DNA of 64,000 nt from Escherichia phage 132, in sequence record MZ417521; one strand, written 5' to 3'. Of the stretch, positions 7,454-57,392 are shown in pieces. Numbering within the stretch: the stretch's first letter is position 1; every line of letters starts with the position of its first letter. The notes beneath the pieces were generated by a model. That model was not told where the DNA came from. It saw only the letters and a list, made by a program, of their open reading frames with translations, and did no database searches. The position numbers were made by a program, and so were the translations under genes.

Positions 7454-7924
7454 TTAATCATGTTTCCACACCCCATCAGTATTTGACCAAAGCCGCTGAT
7501 TATCTGATCCTCGCCACAGCTTTTTAGTCGGAAGATTTTTCTTATACTTCCCATCAATAATAACATCAACATATTTAAGCATTTCTAGTTGTTTAATATC
7601 TTCAAACTTATATCCTGTCCACAACCAAATGCTTTTATTGGGATAAAGATTTTTTACTGTTTGAACGATGCAATGAATAACATCTCGGTTATCAGGATAG
7701 AGAGGGTCACCTCCGGTTATAGTCAATCCTTCTATATAATCATTATTCAAACATTCAATCAATTGTTCTAGTGTTTCACCAGTGAATGGAATACCATTTC
7801 TAGCATTCCATGTTGATTTATTATAACACCCTTCACATTTATGCAAACAACCTGTAACGAAAAGAACGACCCTGCATCCAGGACCATTAACAAAGCAGCA
7901 CGGGTATATTCTGTCATAATTCAT
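7454..7924 (-). CDS. nrdG: Anaerobic ribonucleotide reductase activating protein (radical SAM)
   Basis: Internal ATG gives MNYDRIYPCCFVNGPGCR... with a 4Fe-4S Cys cluster; ATGA overlap with the upstream homing-endonuclease ORF. Confidence 0.85.
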   Translation of the reverse strand: MNYDRIYPCCFVNGPGCRVVLFVTGCLHKCEGCYNKSTWNARNGIPFTGETLEQLIECLNNDYIEGLTITGGDPLYPDNRDVIHCIVQTVKNLYPNKSIWLWTGYKFEDIKQLEMLKYVDVIIDGKYKKNLPTKKLWRGSDNQRLWSNTDGVWKHD

Positions 7925-8751
7925 AATAATATCCAATTTTTCCAAGCTTCATCAGTAGAATTACAGCGTTTTAGTATAAGATGTCTAGAAACTTTTATGG
8001 CATTTGAGCACTTTTTAATTGAATCATATTTAATACCGTCAACTGAAACGGTTTTGCTAGTTGGAGAAATTTTTCCATACATTGGATTTTTTGAACCAAC
8101 TTGAAGTCCTTTTAAAGCTTTTGAAAGCTTTTGTCTAGATTCCAATGACATGGGAGAATTCTTTTTACCTTCAATAATTCGCTTGCGATGAAGTTCGCGT
8201 TCTTCTTCACTCAAAGAATTGTAATATTTTTTAACACCGTTTGATATAGATAATTTATCTTTCTCAGACCGCTCTCCAGCTAATTTACTTCTAACATCTT
8301 TTCGCTTCATAGCTATGCTTACGGCTTTATTTAAATTTGCTTGATGCTCTGGCGTACGTTTATATTTCTTTAAAGCACGTGAAATAGCTATTTTAGTTTC
8401 TTCTGTTCTCTTTTTACCTTTATTTGCTAAACTATTTTTGTGGCGATGTTCAAGTGTCTGTTCATAAGCAGTTCCACCTTTTCCACCGGGTTTAATATTA
8501 TATGTATTTTCTTTTAGACAATACTCTTCGGTTACAAGTTCAGCTTCTTTATCATACATTTGTTTTTCATTATCAAAAACATGTAAAATTTCTTTATTAA
8601 AATTTTTTCTACCATATTTTAATAAAGCGGCACGAATCAATGTTCCTGATCCCATATAACCGTCATTTATGTTATCGGTGCTATGCGCACCGATATATTC
8701 CTTTGAATTAATTATATTTGTTATTTTATAAATTATATAATACCTATGCAT
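7921..8751 (-). CDS. Free-standing GIY-YIG homing endonuclease
   Basis: 276 aa; N-terminal GIY-YIG module (YIIYKITN...EYIGAH), repeated basic DNA-binding motifs, C-terminal helix-turn-helix; wedged between nrdD stop and nrdG start with overlaps at both ends. Confidence 0.8.
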   Translation of the reverse strand: MHRYYIIYKITNIINSKEYIGAHSTDNINDGYMGSGTLIRAALLKYGRKNFNKEILHVFDNEKQMYDKEAELVTEEYCLKENTYNIKPGGKGGTAYEQTLEHRHKNSLANKGKKRTEETKIAISRALKKYKRTPEHQANLNKAVSIAMKRKDVRSKLAGERSEKDKLSISNGVKKYYNSLSEEERELHRKRIIEGKKNSPMSLESRQKLSKALKGLQVGSKNPMYGKISPTSKTVSVDGIKYDSIKKCSNAIKVSRHLILKRCNSTDEAWKNWILL

Positions 8752-10561
8752 GTTTTACTCGTTTTACCATTTCTTTCATTTTACCTAAATTCCATGGAAC
8801 AACGCTAGGAGTTCCAAGATATCCGCATGTTCTTCTTATGGTGTTCATCTTTTTAGGATCAGTTTCTCCACAAATAGAACAAACAAATCCGTTTTCAGTA
8901 GGAGTCATTTCATGGGTACTTCCGCATGTAAAACATTTATCTACTGGCATATTAACACCAAAATAATCTAAATGTTGTGCAGCATAATCCCATACAGCCT
9001 CAAGACCCTTTAGGTTATTTTTCATATCAGGAAGTTCAACATAAGAAATGTGACCACCTGTCGCAATGAAATGATATGGGGCTTCGCGAGAAATCTTTTC
9101 AAATGGAGTAATATTTTCTTCTACTGAAACGTGGAAACTGTTAGTGTACCAGCCTTTATCGGTAACATCTTTTACACTTCCATATTTTTCGGTATCAAGT
9201 TTACAGAAGCGATAGCACAGGTTTTCAGCAGGAGTAGAATACAAACTAAAAGCAAAACCAGTTCTTTCAGTCCATTGTTTAAGATGAGTATTCATTTTAG
9301 TTAAAATTTCTTGTCCAATATCACGACCAACAAGAATATTCAATTCGTGAATACCAATGTATCCTAGGGACACTGAACTTCTACCGTTTTTAAATAACTC
9401 AATTATGTCATCGTCAGGTTTAAGACGAACCCCGAATGCACCTTCTTGGTAAAGAATAGGAGCAACAGTCGCTTTAACTCCTTTTAAGGAACTAATTCTA
9501 CACATCAATACTTCAAAACATAAATCCATTCGTTCATTGAACAATTCAGTAAATTTCTGTTCATTGAACTGTGTTCCAATATAAGAATCTAACGCAATAC
9601 GAGGAAGATTCAGTGTTACAACACCAAGATTATTACGTCCATCAAGAATTTCATTACCAGTCGAATCTTTCCATACGCCCAAGAAACTACGGCAACCCAT
9701 TGGAGAAACAGGAATAGATGAACCTGTGATAGCTTTATTGTTCTTAGCCGAAATGATGTCAGGATACATTCTTTTGCTTGCACACTCTAGAGCAAGCTGC
9801 TTAATATCATAGTTCGGATCGTCTTTATAAAGATTAACACCTTCTTCAACGAACATAACAAGCTTAGGGAAAATAGGAGTTATCCCATCACGACCGAGAC
9901 CTTTAATGCGATTTTTCAGAATTGCTTTCTGAATCATTCGTTCAGTCCAGTCAGTTCCCGTACCAAATGTAATTGTTACAAAAGGCGTTTGTCCGTTTGA
10001 ACTAAAGAGAGTATTTACTTCATATTCATAAGCTTGGAACGCATCGTATACGTCTTTTTCTGTTTTAGACTGGGCGTAATTCAACGCGTCAGCGATTTGC
10101 CATTTTTCTGCGTCCTCAATATGTTTTGCATAGGTGCGTTTAACATAAGGAGAAAGGACTTTATCTACATTCGCAAAAGTCGTTCCACCATATTGATGGG
10201 AAGCAACCTGTGCAGTAATTTGTGCCATAATTGCAGTAGCAACGCCAATTGATTTAGGAGTTTCAATCTGTGCATTACCGAGCTTAAATCCGTTCTCAAG
10301 CATTCCTTTTAAATCTACTAAACAGCAATTAGTAAATGGAAGAGCAGGGGAATAATCAATATCGTGGAAATGGATAATTCCGCTTTCATGCGCTTTCATA
10401 ATAAAAGACGGGACCATATTTTTGGCAATGTGTTTAGACACAATACCAGCCATAAGGTCCCGTTGAGTTGGAAAAACACGAGAATCTTTATTAGCATTCT
10501 CGTTTAAAAGGTCTTTATTAGTTTTATGAATTAATCCTTCAATTTCTTTTTCAATTGTCAT
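8744..10561 (-). CDS. nrdD: Anaerobic ribonucleoside-triphosphate reductase (glycyl radical enzyme), uninterrupted
   Basis: 605 aa continuous ORF; C-terminal Zn-ribbon and glycyl radical region; no intron-sized interruption. Confidence 0.9.
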   Translation of the reverse strand: MTIEKEIEGLIHKTNKDLLNENANKDSRVFPTQRDLMAGIVSKHIAKNMVPSFIMKAHESGIIHFHDIDYSPALPFTNCCLVDLKGMLENGFKLGNAQIETPKSIGVATAIMAQITAQVASHQYGGTTFANVDKVLSPYVKRTYAKHIEDAEKWQIADALNYAQSKTEKDVYDAFQAYEYEVNTLFSSNGQTPFVTITFGTGTDWTERMIQKAILKNRIKGLGRDGITPIFPKLVMFVEEGVNLYKDDPNYDIKQLALECASKRMYPDIISAKNNKAITGSSIPVSPMGCRSFLGVWKDSTGNEILDGRNNLGVVTLNLPRIALDSYIGTQFNEQKFTELFNERMDLCFEVLMCRISSLKGVKATVAPILYQEGAFGVRLKPDDDIIELFKNGRSSVSLGYIGIHELNILVGRDIGQEILTKMNTHLKQWTERTGFAFSLYSTPAENLCYRFCKLDTEKYGSVKDVTDKGWYTNSFHVSVEENITPFEKISREAPYHFIATGGHISYVELPDMKNNLKGLEAVWDYAAQHLDYFGVNMPVDKCFTCGSTHEMTPTENGFVCSICGETDPKKMNTIRRTCGYLGTPSVVPWNLGKMKEMVKRVKHA

Positions 10562-20112: not shown

Positions 20113-20142
20113 ATAGTACCATAAAGCTTTATGCTTGTAAAC
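20113..20142 (-). promoter_or_regulatory. Early sigma70-type promoter
   Basis: Minus strand GTTTAC-N18-TGG-TACTAT; upstream of the AAA+ ATPase gene, just after a terminator. Confidence 0.6.
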
Positions 20143-20164
20143 CGTTTTGTGAAAAAATTTCTGA

Positions 20165-20192
20165 AATAAAAAAAGGGAGCCCGAAGGCTCCC
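20165..20192 (-). terminator. Intrinsic terminator after the nucleotidyltransferase gene
   Basis: GGGAGCC-UUCG-GGCUCCC hairpin followed by UUUUUUUAUUU. Confidence 0.7.
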
Positions 20193-27411: not shown

Positions 27412-27873
27412 TCATTGAGTTTTAATTACTGCTTTAGAAGCCTTTCCTGGTAAACGACGACTGTTGATAATTGCCATCCTGCATTGAAGTGACGGGTTTT
27501 TGAACTTCTCATTAGGCTTACAAACTGTAAATCCAAGCCAAAGATTTCCATCTGTGATTTCTAAACGCCCAGGACGATATTCAACACCATCAATAAAATC
27601 CTCGTCAATGTCAGGACGCGGAGGCATACTCAGGAATTCATTAACTTCTAAAACATGGTCTTTTATTTTATGGAATAATTCAAAAACATATGTCTCATCA
27701 ATCTCCCGTTGAATTGCGCGATCAAGAAGATGCTGAGAATATTTTAGATGAAACGATGAGACCCCTGCTGCTTTTGATGCCTCACGAATCTCATTGTTAA
27801 TTTGACGAAACTCCGACTCAAAGTGACGACGAAGCTTATTTCGACGGATAAAAACTTCTGTATTGATAGTCAT
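27412..27873 (-). CDS. regB: RegB site-specific endoribonuclease
   Basis: 153 aa; matches my recollection of T4 RegB; early promoter immediately upstream. Confidence 0.75.
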   Translation of the reverse strand: MTINTEVFIRRNKLRRHFESEFRQINNEIREASKAAGVSSFHLKYSQHLLDRAIQREIDETYVFELFHKIKDHVLEVNEFLSMPPRPDIDEDFIDGVEYRPGRLEITDGNLWLGFTVCKPNEKFKNPSLQCRMAIINSRRLPGKASKAVIKTQ

Positions 27874-28211: not shown

Positions 28212-28477
28212 TAGTATTTTTCCTCTGGTTGGAACACTGCACGACAAGCCCACATACTGGCTTCTTTGAGTTTCGCTTTAGCAATAGTTAACTGATCGAG
28301 GCTTTCAGCATAATTCTTCGCGAATTCACAGTCTTCGCAATTATCTAGTGCTTCCCAAAATTCATCATATAAAGCGTCAAAGATAAGTCCTAAACGAACT
28401 TCAGCGTCTTTAATAGCATTTACTTTACCGATTTTTTCGTCGGTATGTGGCTTATAACCTTTAATATCTTCAATCAT
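28211..28477 (-). CDS. Hypothetical 88-aa protein at the T4 vs.4 (Acb2) position
   Basis: Internal ATG with GAGGAAG SD; second gene after regB; identity as a cyclic-oligonucleotide sponge is positional only. Confidence 0.45.
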
Positions 28478-28691
28478 ATTTGACTTCCTCACCAGTGCAT
28501 AAATCATATTCAACTAAACGAATAGGTTCATGAATGCCATATCCTTGAACAGAAATTTCTGTAGTAGGATAAATTCCATTAATATCACCCATGTTCCATG
28601 CTTCGTTAAATTGCTGTTCGCCTGAATTACTAAACCATTCGGCGAAAGCATTTAGCACATCTTCAGAACCTTCAATAATTATCTTTGCCAT
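28470..28691 (-). CDS. Hypothetical 73-aa acidic protein
   Basis: ORF track; TAATG overlap with the upstream gene. Confidence 0.5.
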   Translation of the reverse strand: MAKIIIEGSEDVLNAFAEWFSNSGEQQFNEAWNMGDINGIYPTTEISVQGYGIHEPIRLVEYDLCTGEEVKYD

Positions 28692-29053
28692 TACAAACTC
28701 TCGGTAAAGGTACGAGCGATAACGTCGCGCTGCTGTTCCGGAGTCAGAGAGTTAAAGCGAACTGCATAACCGGATACACGGATGGTCAGCTGCGGATATT
28801 TTTCCGGATGCTTAACTGCATCTTCCAGAGTTTCACGACGCAGAACGTTAACGTTCAGGTGTTGACCACCTTCAATTTTAACTGTAGGCTGTGGCTCAAT
28901 TTCAATTTCACGGGCATGCAAACCATAGAAAATTTCTGGGTCTACAAAAGAGTCCTCTTTAAAGGTTTTAGAAACGATAATTCGTGCTTGAATACCATCT
29001 TCAAAATAAATAGTACCTTTATGTGTGCCTTCAAGAATTTGATATGCTTTCAT
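28691..29053 (-). CDS. Autonomous glycyl-radical cofactor (GrcA/YfiD-like)
   Basis: 120 aa; C-terminal half ...[60 protein letters not shown] carries the RVSGY glycyl-radical motif and matches E. coli GrcA as I recall it; 3' part of the gene is visibly more GC-rich than its surroundings. Confidence 0.75.
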
Positions 29054-29060
29054 ATAAACC

Positions 29061-29390
29061 TCAATTAGAAAATAAATTTATCCAAGATTGTTCTTTAATT
29101 AAAAACGGCTCAGAATCATATGCCATTAAACTTTGGGTAATTAATCCTTTAAAAGGTCCATCAATAAATTCCATGGTAAAATATGGAATTTTATTCATTA
29201 ATCTTGCATTAGGAGCAGTGCACAAAACTCTGCATCCTTTGAATACGCCTTTTTGTAATTTGTATTGCTTAGGATAAAATTCGCTCAAGACGTTGTTATT
29301 TGCCAAAATTTCAAAATGATTCACCAATTTATTTTTAATAGTTTTTGGCGAAAAATAAAGATATTCGAAAAGTTGCGTATCTGTCATCAT
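29061..29390 (-). CDS. Hypothetical 109-aa protein
   Basis: Start at ATGATGA overlap with the upstream gene; the ORF-track start is further upstream. Confidence 0.45.
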
Positions 29391-29926
29391 TGCATCCCAA
29401 TTACGAAAAACTGTGGACGAGTAATACCACCAATGCAACATTTACTATTGCAGCAGTAATGTACAGTGTCAATATGGACACTATAAATTTTATCCATATC
29501 AGGAGCTTTAACAGGCTCATCAATTATATACAAAATTCGCGAAAGCAATAAACCCCTGAACTTGCTTCCTTTATTGCCAATAAAACTACGGACAGAATCA
29601 GTAAATAAGCGGAATCGAATATCATCGCTAGAATAACGAGAAAATTCTTTTTTAATGTGGCCTGCAGAAATTTTAGCATAAGCTGAAGTATTAGAAAGAA
29701 CAATAACTGTTCCACCGTCATACAGCCAATTAACAGCAAAATTAGTTACTGCGGTCGATTTACCTGATTGTCTGCCACCGTCTAAACGAAGTGTACAATA
29801 CTGCTTGAGTACGTCTTCAAATGGTGGGGCATAACCGTTCTTACAAATTTCTTCTACTCTAGCATCAGAATGGTGTGTAAAAGCATTCATCAGGGATAGA
29901 TAAGGACCAGTTAAAAATGTTCTCAT
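29387..29926 (-). CDS. P-loop NTPase-like protein
   Basis: Walker A GGRQSGKST and Walker B-like ILYIIDEP; start chosen at the ATG with the best (weak) SD; early-type promoter upstream. Confidence 0.45.
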   Translation of the reverse strand: MRTFLTGPYLSLMNAFTHHSDARVEEICKNGYAPPFEDVLKQYCTLRLDGGRQSGKSTAVTNFAVNWLYDGGTVIVLSNTSAYAKISAGHIKKEFSRYSSDDIRFRLFTDSVRSFIGNKGSKFRGLLLSRILYIIDEPVKAPDMDKIYSVHIDTVHYCCNSKCCIGGITRPQFFVIGMQ

Positions 29927-36390: not shown

Positions 36391-36521
36391 CATTTTGTGA
36401 AAAATTTTTTTAAAGTTTTAGGGAATTCTAGGGCAGGGAGGGGCAATTAAAGGATAGGATAATATATTATAAAGGGTAGAAACTAAATGATGCCTAGAGA
36501 GGTCCAAAAAGGCCTAGATAC

Positions 36522-36550
36522 TAAAAAGCCCCAACCTTTCGGCTGGGGCT
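36522..36550 (-). terminator. Intrinsic terminator at the distal end of the tRNA / small-RNA region
   Basis: AGCCCCA ... UGGGGCU hairpin followed by UUUUUA on the minus strand. Confidence 0.5.
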
Positions 36551-36856
36551 AAGCCTTGCGGCAACCTTGTCGGGGTTCCACCTGCTAAGGCAAGTGTTTG
36601 TACGAAACGCCGGGATTCGAACCCGGTTATTGAGCAGTTGACGCTACTCAATATTTTTAAAAGGCCATATCTCGACCATATCCGAACGTTCCGTCAAAAA
36701 CGCTACTCGGCTTACGGCAAAGATATTTCCTCGAATCGATAATTCGGTGCGCCGTTTCTGCTGTGATAGTAAAGAATCAGAACACAGTAAAACTGTGGGA
36801 GAAACTATACTCCAGGGAACATCAGTCCGACGACTTACCGGTAGCGACCCGGTTTC

Positions 36857-37207
36857 TTAGTATTCTTTTAAAGCATCAACCTGTCCACGACGTTTACGCC
36901 ATAAATCAATTACTTCATACGCAGATTCAGCATTTCGAATTGGACGGCATTTATATAAAGACTTGTGATTTTGATATTGTGTAGATAATGGAATTTTATC
37001 TAAAAGGTCTTTACGTTCAAAGTATTCGTAACCATCTAAACCAAATGAACGATTTTTGAGAAATTGCCAATGACCGTATTCGTTTTCGACATAAACATAA
37101 TCTGCATGCTGATAAAGTAAATTAATTACACGTTCAGAAATAACAGTGTCATTATGATTAAAATAGAATGTTAAATCATGAACTACTAAATAAACATTAC
37201 CTTTCAT
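36857..37207 (-). CDS. Hypothetical 116-aa protein directly downstream of tRNA-Arg
   Basis: ATG at 37205-37207 with GAGGAAAAT SD, 17 nt after the tRNA-Arg 3' end. Confidence 0.55.
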   Translation of the reverse strand: MKGNVYLVVHDLTFYFNHNDTVISERVINLLYQHADYVYVENEYGHWQFLKNRSFGLDGYEYFERKDLLDKIPLSTQYQNHKSLYKCRPIRNAESAYEVIDLWRKRRGQVDALKEY

Positions 37208-37223
37208 ATTTTCCTCACTTAAT

Positions 37224-37299
37224 TGGTCGAGGCAGTAGGGATCGAACCTACGACCTAGGACTTAGAAGGTCCTTGCTCTTCCTTCTGAGCTATGCCTCG
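37224..37299 (-). tRNA. tRNA-Arg (anticodon TCT)
   Basis: Cloverleaf folded by hand: D stem GCTC/GAGC, anticodon loop CTTCTAA, T arm GTAGG-TTCGATC-CCTAC, 3' CCA encoded. Confidence 0.8.
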
Positions 37300-37303
37300 G
37301 ATT

Positions 37304-37378
37304 TGGCGGACGTGATAGGATTCGAACCTATAACCAATCGCTTAACAGGCGATCGCTCTGCCATTGAGCTACACATCC
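37304..37378 (-). tRNA. tRNA-Asn (anticodon GTT)
   Basis: Acceptor GGATGTG/CACGTCC, anticodon stem ATCGC/GCGAT with loop CTGTTAA, T loop TTCGAAT, CCA encoded. Confidence 0.75.
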
Positions 37379-37382
37379 AAAT

Positions 37383-37469
37383 TGGTGGGGAGTGATGGAG
37401 TCGAACCACCCGAGTCGCAATGACAATGGATTTACAGTCCACACCGCTACCTCTACGGGATAACTCCCC
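37383..37469 (-). tRNA. tRNA-Tyr (anticodon GTA), long variable arm
   Basis: Acceptor GGGGAGT/ACTCCCC, anticodon loop CTGTAAA, long variable arm, T loop TTCGACT, CCA encoded. Confidence 0.7.
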
Positions 37470-37478
37470 AAATTAATT

Positions 37479-37553
37479 TGGTGGCCCTGGGTGGAATTGA
37501 ACCACCATCTGGCGATTATGAGTCGCTTGCTTGAACCTTCCAGCTACAGGGCC
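37479..37553 (-). tRNA. tRNA-Ile/Met (anticodon CAT; likely the lysidine-modified AUA-reading Ile as in T4)
   Basis: Acceptor GGCCCTG/CAGGGCC, anticodon loop CTCATAA, CCA encoded; 1 nt from tRNA-Thr. Confidence 0.75.
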
Positions 37554-37554
37554 T

Positions 37555-37630
37555 TGGTGCTGATTGACGGAATCGAACCGCCGACGTCCTCATTACAAGT
37601 GAGGTGCTCTACCTACTGAGCTAAATCAGC
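37555..37630 (-). tRNA. tRNA-Thr (anticodon TGT)
   Basis: Acceptor GCTGATT/AATCAGC, anticodon stem-loop CCTCA-CTTGTAA-TGAGG, CCA encoded. Confidence 0.8.
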
Positions 37631-37635
37631 AAAAC

Positions 37636-37725
37636 TGGCGGAGGCGATAGGATTTGAACCTATGAGTCGCCGGAGCGACTGCCGGTTTTCAAGACCGGTG
37701 CATTAAACCACTCTGCCACGCCTCC
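37636..37725 (-). tRNA. tRNA-Ser (anticodon TGA), long variable arm
   Basis: Acceptor GGAGGCG/CGCCTCC, anticodon loop CTTGAAA, long variable arm, CCA encoded. Confidence 0.8.
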
Positions 37726-37727
37726 AG

Positions 37728-37801
37728 TCTCCGCGGCAGGATTTGAACCTGCGACATTCTGCTCCCAAAGCAGACGCTCTACCAAACTGAGCTACACGGA
37801 G
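37728..37801 (-). tRNA. tRNA-Pro (anticodon TGG)
   Basis: Anticodon stem TCTGC/GCAGA with loop TTTGGGA, T loop TTCAAAT; CCA not encoded; 2 nt from tRNA-Ser. Confidence 0.75.
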
Positions 37802-37811
37802 TAAATTAAAT

Positions 37812-37885
<74 letters not shown>

Positions 37886-37890
37886 AAATT

Positions 37891-37977
37891 TGGTGCGAGA
37901 AGTGGGACTCGAACCCACAAGGAAATCATTCCGCAGCATTTTAAGTGCTGTGCCTTTACCAATTTGACCATTCTCGC
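37891..37977 (-). tRNA. tRNA-Leu (anticodon TAA), long variable arm
   Basis: Acceptor GCGAGAA/TTCTCGC, anticodon loop CTTAAAA, long variable arm, CCA encoded. Confidence 0.8.
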
Positions 37978-37978
37978 G

Positions 37979-38051
37979 CTGGGAATAAAGGACTCGAACC
38001 TTTGCATCCTGGAATCAAAATCCAGTGCCTTACCAACTTGGCTAATTCCCA
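37979..38051 (-). tRNA. tRNA-Gln (anticodon TTG)
   Basis: Acceptor TGGGAAT/ATTCCCA, anticodon stem-loop CTGGA-TTTTGAT-TCCAG; CCA not encoded; 1 nt from tRNA-Leu. Confidence 0.8.
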
Positions 38052-43834: not shown

Positions 43835-45545
43835 TAACCTTAATTGGTTTGTTGGTGTTGTTGAAGATAGAATGGACCCATTAAAATTAGGTCGCGTTCG
43901 TGTTCGTGTGGTTGGTCTGCATCCACCCCAAAGAGCGCAAGGCGATGTAATGGGTATTCCAACCGATAAATTGCCATGGATGTCAGTTATTCAACCGATA
44001 ACTTCTGCAGCAATGTCTGGAATTGGAGGCTCCGTTACTGGTCCGGTAGAAGGAACTAGAGTATATGGTCATTTTTTAGACAAATGGAAAACTAACGGAA
44101 TTGTCCTTGGCACATATGGTGGAATAGTTCGCGAAAAACCTAATAGACTTGAAGGATTTTCTGACCCAACTGGGCAGTATCCTAGACGTCTAGGAAATGA
44201 TACTAACGTATTAAACCAAGGCGGAGAAGTAGGATATGATTCGTCTTCTAACGTTATCCAAGACAGTAATTTAGACACTGCGATAAATCCCGATGATAGA
44301 CCGCTATCAGAGATTCCAACTGATGATAATCCAAATATGTCAATGGCTGAAATGCTTCGCCGTGATGAAGGATTAAGACTAAAAGTTTATTGGGATACAG
44401 AAGGATATCCGACAATTGGTATTGGTCATCTTATCATGAAGCAGCCAGTTCGTGATATGACCCAAATTAATAAAGTTTTATCAAAACAAGTTGGTCGTGA
44501 AATTACCGGAAATCCAGGTTCTATTACAATGGAAGAAGCGGTAACTTTATTTGAACGCGATTTGGCTGATATGCAACGTGACATTAAATCACATTCTAAA
44601 GTTGGCCCAGTTTGGCAAGCAGTTAATCGTTCTCGTCAAATGGCGTTAGAAAATATGGCATTCCAAATGGGCGTTGGTGGCGTAGCTAAATTTAACACAA
44701 TGTTAACTGCTATGTTAGCCGGAGATTGGGAAAAAGCATACAAAGCCGGTCGTGATTCATTATGGTATCAACAAACAAAAGGCCGTGCATCCCGTGTTAC
44801 CATGATTATTCTTACAGGTAATTTGGAATCATACGGTATTGAAGTTAAAACACCAGCTAGGTCTTTGTCAGCAATGGCTGCTACTGTAGCAAAGTCTTCT
44901 GACCCGGCTGACCCTCCTATTCCGAATGATTCGAGAATTTTATTCAAAGAACCTGTTTCTTCATATAAAGGTGAATATCCGTATGTTCACACAATGGAAA
45001 CTGAAAGCGGTCATATTCAGGAATTTGATGATACCCCTGGGCAAGAACGATACAGATTAGTTCATCCGACTGGAACGTATGAGGAAGTATCACCATCAGG
45101 AAGAAGAACAAGAAAAACTGTTGATAATTTGTATGATATAACAAATGCTGATGGTAATTTTTTAGTAGCCGGCGATAAAAAGACTAACGTCGGTGGATCA
45201 GAAATTTATTACAACATGGATAATCGTCTTCACCAAATAGATGGAAGCAACACAATATTTGTGCGTGGCGATGAAACTAAGACAGTTGAAGGTAATGGAA
45301 CTATCCTAGTCAAAGGTAATGTTACTATTGTAGTTGAAGGTAATGCTGACATTACAGTTAAAGGGGATGCTACCACTTTAGTTGAAGGAAATCAGACTAA
45401 TACAGTAAATGGAAATCTTTCTTGGAAAGTTGCTGGGACAGTTGATTGGGACGTTGGTGGTGATTGGACAGAAAAAATGGCATCTATGAGTTCTATTTCA
45501 TCTGGTCAATACACAATTGATGGATCGAGGATTGACATTGGCTAA
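43818..45545 (+). CDS. 5: Baseplate hub / tail-associated lysozyme gp5
   Basis: 575 aa; central lysozyme domain paralogous to gene e; C-terminal beta-helix VEGN repeats. Confidence 0.9.
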   Translation: MEMISNNLNWFVGVVEDRMDPLKLGRVRVRVVGLHPPQRAQGDVMGIPTDKLPWMSVIQPITSAAMSGIGGSVTGPVEGTRVYGHFLDKWKTNGIVLGTYGGIVREKPNRLEGFSDPTGQYPRRLGNDTNVLNQGGEVGYDSSSNVIQDSNLDTAINPDDRPLSEIPTDDNPNMSMAEMLRRDEGLRLKVYWDTEGYPTIGIGHLIMKQPVRDMTQINKVLSKQVGREITGNPGSITMEEAVTLFERDLADMQRDIKSHSKVGPVWQAVNRSRQMALENMAFQMGVGGVAKFNTMLTAMLAGDWEKAYKAGRDSLWYQQTKGRASRVTMIILTGNLESYGIEVKTPARSLSAMAATVAKSSDPADPPIPNDSRILFKEPVSSYKGEYPYVHTMETESGHIQEFDDTPGQERYRLVHPTGTYEEVSPSGRRTRKTVDNLYDITNADGNFLVAGDKKTNVGGSEIYYNMDNRLHQIDGSNTIFVRGDETKTVEGNGTILVKGNVTIVVEGNADITVKGDATTLVEGNQTNTVNGNLSWKVAGTVDWDVGGDWTEKMASMSSISSGQYTIDGSRIDIG

Positions 45546-55845: not shown

Positions 55846-57392
55846 GTAACAATACATATCAGCACGTATCAAATGAATCAAAATATGTTAAATTCGATCC
55901 AGTAGGATCGAATTTTCCTGACACTGTCACGACAGTGCAGTCTGCATTATCAAAAATAAGTAATATCGGTGTAAATGGTATTCCTGATGCAACTATGGAA
56001 GTTAAAGGAATAGCAATGATTGCGTCAGAGCAAGAGGTTTTAGATGGAACTAATAATTCTAAAATCGTTACACCAGCTACATTAGCAACAAGATTATTGT
56101 ATCCAAATGCTACTGAAACTAAGTATGGTTTAACGCGCTATTCAACAAATGAAGAAACATTAGAAGGCTCAGATAATAATTCATCAATAACGCCGCAAAA
56201 ACTGAAATACCATACTGACGATGTGTTCCAAAATAGATATTCGTCTGAGTCATCAAACGGGGTTATTAAAATATCATCAACACCTGCAGCTTTAGCTGGA
56301 GTTGATGATACTACGGCAATGACTCCATTAAAAACGCAAAAACTTGCAATAAAATTAATTTCACAAATAGCTCCTTCCGAAGATACTGCATCAGAATCTG
56401 TGAGAGGTGTAGTTCAATTATCTACTGTTGCGCAAACTCGTCAAGGAACTCTCCGCGAAGGATATGCAATTTCTCCGTATACCTTTATGAATTCTGTTGC
56501 AACACAAGAATATAAGGGTGTTATACGTTTAGGAACACAATCGGAAATTAACAGTAATTTAGGAGATGTTGCAGTAACAGGTGAAACACTAAATGGTCGA
56601 GGAGCTACTGGTTCTATGCGTGGGGTGGTAAAATTAACGACGCAAGCCGGTATTGCCCCCGAGGGTGATAGCTCTGGAGCATTAGCATGGAACGCAGATG
56701 TAATTAATACTCGTGGTGGACAAACTATTAATGGTTCTTTAAATTTAGACCATCTTACAGCAAACGGAATTTGGTCACGCGGCGGTATGTGGAAAAATGG
56801 CGATCAACCTGTTGCCACTGAAAGATATGCGTCCGAAAGAGTTCCAGTTGGAACTATTATGATGTTTGCGGGTGATTCAGCACCTCCGGGTTGGATTATG
56901 TGCCACGGCGGAACCGTGTCAGGAGATCAATATCCTGATTATAGAAACACAGTTGGAACAAGATTTGGTGGTGATTGGAATAACCCTGGCATTCCTGATA
57001 TGCGAGGTCTTTTCGTCAGAGGAGCTGGCACGGGCGGTCATATTTTAAATCAACGAGGACAAGATGGCTATGGGAAGGATAGACTTGGTGTAGGATGTGA
57101 CGGAATGCATGTTGGTGGTGTTCAGGCACAACAAATGTCATACCATAAACATGCTGGTGGTTGGGGTGAATATAACAGAAGTGAAGGCCCATTTGGCGCG
57201 TCAGTTTATCAAGGATATCTTGGAACTAGAAAATATTCCGACTGGGATAATGCTTCATACTTCACTAATGATGGATTTGAATTAGGTGGACCGAGAGATG
57301 CTCATGGTACACTTAATCGTGAAGGATTAATTGGTTATGAAACTAGACCATGGAATATATCATTAAACTATATTATTAAAGTTCATTACTAA
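55842..57392 (+). CDS. 12: Short tail fiber gp12
   Basis: 516 aa; syntenic between 11 and wac. Confidence 0.9.

Follow-up and report, generated by a model that had tools for sequence, protein, structure and literature searches.

How does the DNA of a virulent T4-like phage come to contain a stretch identical to the chromosome of its host? The question is raised by the vs.6 orthologue of Escherichia phage 132 (sequence record MZ417521), which we analysed within a stretch of 64,000 nucleotides (nt), read on one strand and referred to below as the window. The gene encodes a small glycyl-radical protein of the GrcA/YfiD type. We consider it very probable that it is an old, syntenic spare-part gene of the Tevenvirinae in which the DNA for the C-terminal domain was copied from Escherichia coli grcA, through a conversion process that is recurrent and tracks the host.

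The vs.6 gene and its product

The gene and its segments are as follows, in window coordinates.

28691-29053, minus strand: vs.6 (Y06I) orthologue, encoding a stand-alone glycyl-radical spare-part protein of the GrcA/YfiD type, 120 amino acids (aa) long (open reading frame (ORF); Pfam, PHROG and PDB matches)
28876-29053, minus strand: phage-type 5' half, covering residues 1-59 and the larger part of codon 60, AT-rich and weakly similar to the N-terminal half (N-half) of GrcA
28704-28875, minus strand: host-derived tract, an exact match to E. coli grcA over 172 consecutive nt, which encodes residues 61-116 and part of codon 117
28691-28703, minus strand: phage-type 3' end, the last four codons and the stop, with four synonymous differences from grcA
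28766-28780, minus strand: RVSGY motif, residues 92-96 (translation and alignment to residues 697-759 of pyruvate formate-lyase, PFL)

The ORF, with an ATG start and a TAA stop, occupies exactly 28691-29053. Residues 61-101 match the Gly_radical domain (Pfam PF01228; E = 2.8e-18, 66.8 bits against a cutoff of 22.2), and the Pfam search found no second domain in the 120-aa product. Among solved structures, the top match is E. coli YfiD/GrcA (PDB 6owr; residues 22-120, E = 8.6e-42), followed by the C-terminus of PFL, in which residues 58-120 correspond to PFL 697-759 (E = 5e-26). Gly95, within the RVSGY motif, is the predicted radical glycine and counterpart of PFL Gly734. Thus, the protein combines the features of the GrcA/YfiD family, namely, small size, the Gly_radical domain, the RVSGY motif and homology to PFL ~693-759. 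It also has those of the T4 vs.6 group: full-length similarity to PHROG 1209, the PHROG of T4 vs.6 (residues 1-120, E = 1.2e-62), and a position next to vs.7 and vs.5 in the regB-denV early region.

The window genome is Tequatrovirus-like and ~95% identical to many T4-like coliphages. Its vs.6 product is identical to that of T4 (NP_049730) at 119 of 120 residues, with Arg73 here and His73 in T4, and RefSeq labels the T4 protein 'autonomous glycyl radical cofactor GrcA', so the GrcA/YfiD-like spare-part gene recognized in an initial annotation of this DNA is confirmed. T4 vs.6 is, we take it, the protein named Y06I, and the gene, its family and its function are already known. The Gly_radical match of vs.6 was noted for six of six T4-like genomes in the part of Nolan et al. 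2006 that deals with it. Salmonella phage Lv5cm (MZ150757.1) has two places matching vs.6 and two features named 'autonomous glycyl radical cofactor', which may reflect a duplication or terminal redundancy.

A host-identical tract with internal boundaries

Residues 61-120 of the window protein are identical to residues 68-127 of E. coli GrcA at 60 of 60 positions (BLASTP), which bears out the match of the ~60 C-terminal residues carrying RVSGY that the initial annotation had put forward. The agreement extends to the DNA. Gene nt 179-363 (window 28691-28875, 185 nt) match grcA in 5426 of 5426 complete E. coli genomes, with 97.8% identity in the best-matching ones (BLASTN). All four mismatches are synonymous and fall in the last four codons, which read ACC GAG AGT TTG in the window and ACT GAA AGC CTG in grcA (pairwise alignment). 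This 3' end differs among phages: T4 has ACT GAA AGT TTG, and E. coli phage ST2 departs from grcA at three positions of its own.

Composition changes together with identity. The GC content is 48.6% at 28691-28875 (49.4% within the tract, 28704-28875), compared with 34.3% at 28876-29053 and a window mean of 35.1%, as expected from the GC-rich 3' part described in the initial annotation. When the shift was computed over 185-nt windows (standard deviation 4.6%), the segment 28691-28875 had z = 2.95, and just 1% of such windows in the 64 kb were as GC-rich. The GC content at third codon positions (GC3) rises from 0.20 in the 5' half to 0.44-0.45 in the 3' half; the latter value equals that of E. 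coli grcA itself, where GC3 is even across the gene (0.42 and 0.43 in its two halves).

The N-half was described initially as phage-specific. Its sequence is indeed phage-type, being 73-76% identical in nt to the same half of the gene in Klebsiella and Enterobacter phages; it is, however, a diverged homologue of the GrcA N-half and not an unrelated sequence, given that a weak BLASTP alignment to E. coli GrcA begins at residue 22. The boundary between the two parts was located by a triplet test in which the window gene was set against E. coli grcA and a phage orthologue that had not been converted (PG7, L093 or L094). On the 5' side of the codons for EGGQ, the window gene is phage-type at 60-65 of 68-73 informative sites, and on the 3' side, it is E. 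coli-type at 34-40 of 36-41, a clean switch (permutation p <= 5e-4).

These observations bear on the possibility that the whole gene was captured lately from E. coli and that its 5' half then diverged fast. Such a history would accommodate the weak homology between the N-half and that of GrcA, all the more so because this half is disordered in YfiD, according to the account of the YfiD structure in PMC8683613, and could evolve fast. However, the N-half has a GC3 of 0.20, resembles the N-halves of other phages, is phage-type at most informative sites and shares its vs.7-vs.6-vs.5/vs.4 surroundings with those phages; the terminal 13 nt are phage-type too; and zero changes in 172 nt are incompatible with ~50% divergence alongside over an equal time. 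We therefore regard capture of the whole gene as very unlikely. Because the tract is flanked by phage sequence on both sides, it points to gene conversion into an existing phage homologue and not to recent gene capture. Of the two origins proposed in the initial annotation, conversion from the host thus stands, and recent acquisition of the gene does not, since the flanks, the 5' half and the final 13 nt are old phage sequence. The locus combines high identity and internal breakpoints with a composition step and phylogenetic incongruence of the segments (see below), the marks by which we recognize conversion.

A host-identical stretch in a phage contig also raises the generic concern of a chimeric assembly or contamination by host reads, for which nothing specific speaks here. 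Against it, the T4 reference genome has the same mosaic with the same junction, the gene is at least 95% identical in 491 independent phage records, and the reading frame is unbroken, with the phage-type last 13 nt following the patch, so that the probability of an artefact is close to negligible.

No other host-like stretch shared by E. coli genomes was found within the 64-kb window by megablast against the 5426 genomes. The remaining matches are tRNAs on plasmid records and, in a single genome, a stretch of 55 nt. The latter match, at 20124-20178, is 94.5% identical to an unannotated place in the single E. coli strain BE104, which may be a prophage or phage remnant.

Identity beyond protein conservation

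The level of nucleotide identity compatible with protein conservation was gauged from the Pseudotevenvirus phages EkoM5VN, L098 and L100, in which the last 58 residues equal those of E. coli GrcA. These baseline phages share 83-85% nt identity with grcA, with longest exact runs of 17-29 nt, and the chance of a 172-nt exact run at 85% identity is 0.85^172 ~ 1e-12. Conservation of the protein is therefore insufficient to account for the match. The initial annotation had proposed a BLASTN comparison with grcA and had named as evidence against itself an identity no higher than protein conservation predicts together with the lack of a local GC shift; the comparison gave 97.8% at best and the 172-nt run, far above that level, and the shift is present.

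Without any DNA transfer, the sequences would have to be kept alike by extreme purifying selection on the glycyl-radical domain combined with codon or mRNA constraints. Selection on the protein is certainly very strong, as the C-terminal domain (C-domain) is 100% conserved even in the three baseline phages, which lack nucleotide identity; their short exact runs, however, show what selection alone yields. Furthermore, the patch has a host-like GC3 inside an AT-rich genome, and Klebsiella phages follow the synonymous states of Klebsiella at 18-19 of 21 diagnostic sites (see below). We consider an origin without transfer extremely unlikely.

Pseudotevenvirus orthologues L098-L102, on IMG/VR contigs of 143,983-180,500 bp, and L006 have a C-domain protein 98-100% identical to E. 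coli GrcA and encoded by DNA that is 82-85% identical, with a C-domain GC3 of 0.43-0.47, above the 0.25-0.33 of the N-half. This pattern fits either very strong selection at the protein level or an old, decayed conversion.

The two parts of the gene have different relatives: the N-half groups with phage orthologues and the C-domain with Escherichia. In a neighbour-joining (NJ) tree of the C-domain, Escherichia and the Tequatrovirus-type phages form a clade with 98% bootstrap support, and the monophyly of all phage sequences receives 0%. Over the 174 nt of the C-domain, the window gene is 98.9% identical to E. coli grcA, compared with 98.9% for Escherichia sp., 92.5% for Citrobacter, 87.9% for Klebsiella pneumoniae and 83.3% for Salmonella. 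Identity alone does not give the direction of transfer, and E. coli and, separately, Klebsiella might have taken the C-domain from phages. However, the bacterial C-domains follow bacterial relationships, as the identities just listed show; GC3 is even in E. coli grcA and stepped, from 0.20 to 0.45, in the phage gene; and the allele is carried by all the E. coli genomes searched. Such a reverse transfer, hence, appears exceedingly improbable.

A stand-alone GrcA-like gene of 122-154 aa is also present in T5-like (Tequintavirus-type) phages with contigs of ~104-122 kb (L122, L126, L128-L154 and L166), where GenBank labels it pyruvate formate-lyase, 2-ketobutyrate formate-lyase or acetyltransferase. 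The C-domains of these proteins are ~78-86% identical to enterobacterial GrcA in aa and 68-77% in nt, without a host-type patch.

Recurrence in other phages

Comparison with Klebsiella phages and with ST2 gave the following.

KP185 (Klebsiella phage), 3' half: 94.8% identical to K. pneumoniae grcA and 85.7% to E. coli grcA; 18 of 21 Klebsiella-diagnostic states
Roth01 (Klebsiella phage): 95.4% identity to K. pneumoniae grcA, including an exact run of 101 nt; LLDAVEH encoded; 19 of 21 Klebsiella states
ST2 (E. coli phage), identity to the window: flanks 67-68%, N-half 88%, C-domain 98.8%, last 13 nt 77%

The orthologues in Klebsiella phages of the genus Jiaodavirus have the same architecture, with a GC3 of 0.18 in the N-half and 0.60 in the C-domain. 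At the 21 sites separating E. coli from K. pneumoniae grcA, the window gene has the E. coli state at 20 and T4 at all 21, and the residues LLDAVEH encoded by Roth01 are specific to Klebsiella. The 5' edge of the patch lies at the same position in the E. coli-type and Klebsiella-type groups. Thus, a patch 94-95% identical to K. pneumoniae grcA recurs independently in Jiaodavirus, with a different host as the donor and the same 5' edge, and the exchange has thus happened at least twice, host-matched each time. The bootstrap values of the specific Klebsiella groupings tested are low (15-19%, NJ), which weighs against this interpretation, and the Klebsiella case therefore rests on the counts of diagnostic sites.

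The K. pneumoniae grcA sequence was taken from chromosome-like records in a plasmid collection. Several records labelled 'plasmid', namely, 'plasmid 2' of K. aerogenes NCTC10006 (L168), PLSDB CP125156.1 and NZ_OL790696.1, are chromosome-sized or chromosome fragments, and in L168, the reading frame of K. aerogenes grcA is shifted by one surplus A within a run of A, which probably reflects an error of assembly. As another potential donor, pflB was tried and rejected, being ~81% identical in nt to the KP185 C-domain query.

In ST2, the C-domain is an island of identity to the window gene: synonymous codon differences drop from 26% in the N-half to 5% in the C-domain. It follows that the C-domain was homogenised to the E. 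coli sequence after the phage lineages diverged. A metagenomic phage, L107 (IMG/VR UViG_3300008607_000007), encodes a GrcA-like protein (gene 592-993) with a C-domain 85.6% identical to Haemophilus parainfluenzae grcA (L067), including a 53-nt exact run, and groups with L067 in the NJ tree. To judge from these matches, L107 could represent a phage of Pasteurellaceae with a patch of host origin, the third of its kind and an older one.

Several further observations count against recurrent, host-tracking conversion or limit its reach. No phage with at least 95% identity to the tested Salmonella or Enterobacter grcA alleles was found, and Tequatroviruses from Yersinia, Salmonella and Hafnia are still close to E. 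coli-type grcA; conversion would therefore be occasional and then inherited, not continuous. For Klebsiella phages Boboto and Roth17, the best identity among the grcA sequences compared is just ~90-91%. As to the classification of the protein, NCBIfam TIGR04365 (spare_glycyl) is the best-scoring family, at 153.3 bits, below the equivalog cutoff of 170; the low score is due to the divergent N-half, and it marks the protein as a member of a phage subfamily and not as a strict bacterial GrcA equivalog. Moreover, T4 breaks down the DNA of its host and has hydroxymethylcytosine (hmC) in its own, so that exchange with the host should be rare. Finally, the evidence for recombination consists of sequence patterns, and RB43-type phages retain the identical protein even though the nucleotide identity is missing.

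Function and proposed mechanism

Drawing on Wagner et al. 2001, PMC8683613 describes how YfiD and T4 Y06I, once the PFL-activating enzyme (PFL-AE) has given them a radical, reactivate PFL that has been cleaved by O2. The same account describes YfiD residues 61-127 as having the fold of PFL 693-759 and residues 1-60 as disordered, yet helpful both for binding to the cleaved enzyme and for activation. The extent of the tract corresponds to that of the structured part of YfiD (residues 61-127).

By analogy with YfiD and T4 Y06I, the work on which the following functional steps draw, the window protein, one residue off T4 vs.6, would act as a spare part for the host enzyme. Oxygen would cleave host PFL at Gly734, and the small vs.6 protein would dock on the cleaved enzyme; host PflA would install the glycyl radical on the RVSGY loop (Gly95), and the C-terminal domain of vs.6 would stand in for the lost PFL C-terminus. 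In the infected cell, fermentative production of acetyl-CoA and formate would be restored. The activase of the vs.6 product is presumably host PflA; T4 is not known to encode one.

The recombination system of T4 is very active. We infer from the sequence patterns that the patch could arise during infection when fragments of the host chromosome recombine homologously with the phage gene or convert it. The exchange would be limited to the sole block with enough phage-host similarity to pair, that is, the conserved domain, which runs from EGGQ almost to the stop, and the 5' half, the last 13 nt and the flanks would be left phage-type. A first patch would ease further exchange. The likely benefit would be a C-terminal domain matched exactly to the PFL and PflA of the current host; this advantage, too, we infer. 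The phage-type 3' end may persist because the translation-initiation region of the next gene lies there, an idea weakened by the longer E. coli-type end of T4.

A broader proposition is that in strictly lytic phages of the T4 type, vs.6 is a permanent hotspot for conversion from host to phage, with the glycyl-radical domain repeatedly overwritten by host grcA; to this, we assign even chances.

Genomic context and other features of the window

Around vs.6 and elsewhere in the window, the following features were identified.

28470-28691, minus strand: vs.5-like ORF, downstream of vs.6, 73 aa (PHROG 1986; T4 gene order vs.7-vs.6-vs.5)
29061-29441, minus strand: vs.7-like ORF, upstream of vs.6, 126 aa (PHROG 2049; T4 synteny)
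29444-29472, minus strand: sigma-70-like promoter match 5' of vs.7 (TTGACA-17-AATAGT with TG)
8744-10561, minus strand: nrdD, encoding the anaerobic ribonucleotide reductase, another glycyl-radical protein of the window (Pfam NRDD, E = 9.6e-171, and Gly_radical)
7454-7945, minus strand: nrdG, encoding the radical-SAM enzyme that activates NrdD (Pfam Fer4_12, E = 4.2e-48, and Radical_SAM)

With RegB at 27412-27873, the locus has the order regB / vs.5 / vs.6 / vs.7 / denV, as in T4. The stop of vs.6 and the ATG of the vs.5-like ORF overlap (TAATG), and the two genes are therefore probably translationally coupled. The sequence at 29444-29472 is a candidate early promoter for vs.7-vs.6-vs.5, put forward as a consensus match only.

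The initial annotation had credited the phage with a full anaerobic glycyl-radical toolkit formed by this gene, nrdD and nrdG. Both nrdD and nrdG are present, but the toolkit was overstated: NrdG activates NrdD, whereas YfiD and Y06I use PFL-AE, according to the relevant part of PMC8683613. Between nrdD and nrdG lies a 276-aa ORF (7921-8751, minus strand) with NUMOD3 and I-TevI-type DNA-binding motifs, which is homing-endonuclease-like and, judging by these motifs, looks like a mobile endonuclease insertion in the anaerobic ribonucleotide reductase operon.

The window has other GC-rich regions. Ten tRNA genes (Arg, Asn, Tyr, Met, Thr, Ser, Pro, Gly, Leu and Gln) at 37224-38051 on the minus strand account for the GC peak at 37204-37899, and some of these tRNAs are 82-90% identical to tRNA genes on E. 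coli plasmid records; T4 has 8 tRNAs. The region 36428-36755, which adjoins the tRNA cluster, is GC-rich (up to 52% in 185-nt windows) and contains no ORF of at least 50 aa and no Rfam match; it might be the counterpart of the small stable RNAs of T4 (species 1/2, rnaC/rnaD). The GC peaks at 43869-44074 and 56739-57205 (48-49%) have no E. coli genome match by megablast.

Relationship to known systems and implications

The closest relative of the gene, T4 vs.6, has the same length, lies between regB and denV in the same order vs.7-vs.6-vs.5, carries the same 3' patch of E. coli sequence and differs by a few synonymous changes. Its E. coli-type sequence extends ~6 nt further at the 3' end (ACT GAA, compared with ACC GAG in the window), and its longest exact run with grcA is 138 nt, compared with 172 in the window. 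Like the window protein, E. coli GrcA (YfiD) is a stand-alone protein of ~14 kDa, with the 60 C-terminal residues identical, including RVSGY, whereas the N-half of the phage protein shows ~35% aa identity where alignable, is seven residues shorter and has phage codon usage. The C-terminus of PflB (697-759), the part replaced by the spare protein, shares the fold and the motif with vs.6 but differs from it at many positions.

Intragenic recombination between host and phage was reportedly described, by Zeidner et al. in 2005 and Sullivan et al. in 2006, for mosaics of cyanophage psbA and psbD. These are, like vs.6, auxiliary metabolic genes of lytic T4-like phages with recurrent, host-specific patches of host type, and the vs.6 mosaic may be placed with such cases conceptually, by analogy. 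Unlike psbA and psbD, vs.6 is a very small gene whose tract coincides with one structural domain and is 100% identical to the host over 172 nt, in an hmC-containing coliphage that destroys host DNA, and its product repairs a host enzyme instead of replacing it.

No earlier description of the host-identical tract or of a host-tracking mosaic was found in the searchable literature, where the function and the Pfam match alone are mentioned, and a prior mention is possible; what is new here is the internal boundaries of the tract and its Klebsiella counterpart. A lytic, host-DNA-destroying, hmC-containing phage carries a single host-identical stretch of 172 nt, the sole one in 64 kb, and Klebsiella sister phages carry the Klebsiella version. 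The case is neat and testable but does not amount to a new type of system. It offers a small example, amenable to experiment, of homologous exchange between the host chromosome and a virulent phage, which could serve to quantify such exchange, to find out how closely a spare-part domain has to fit its client enzyme and, possibly, as a marker of the recent host. If vs.6 is indeed a conversion hotspot, the hotspot would keep the spare part matched to the PFL and PflA of the host; the patch would record the recent host genus, being E. coli-type in Tequatrovirus-like phages and Klebsiella-type in Jiaodavirus; and the disordered N-half would evolve as phage sequence, perhaps with a phage-specific role.

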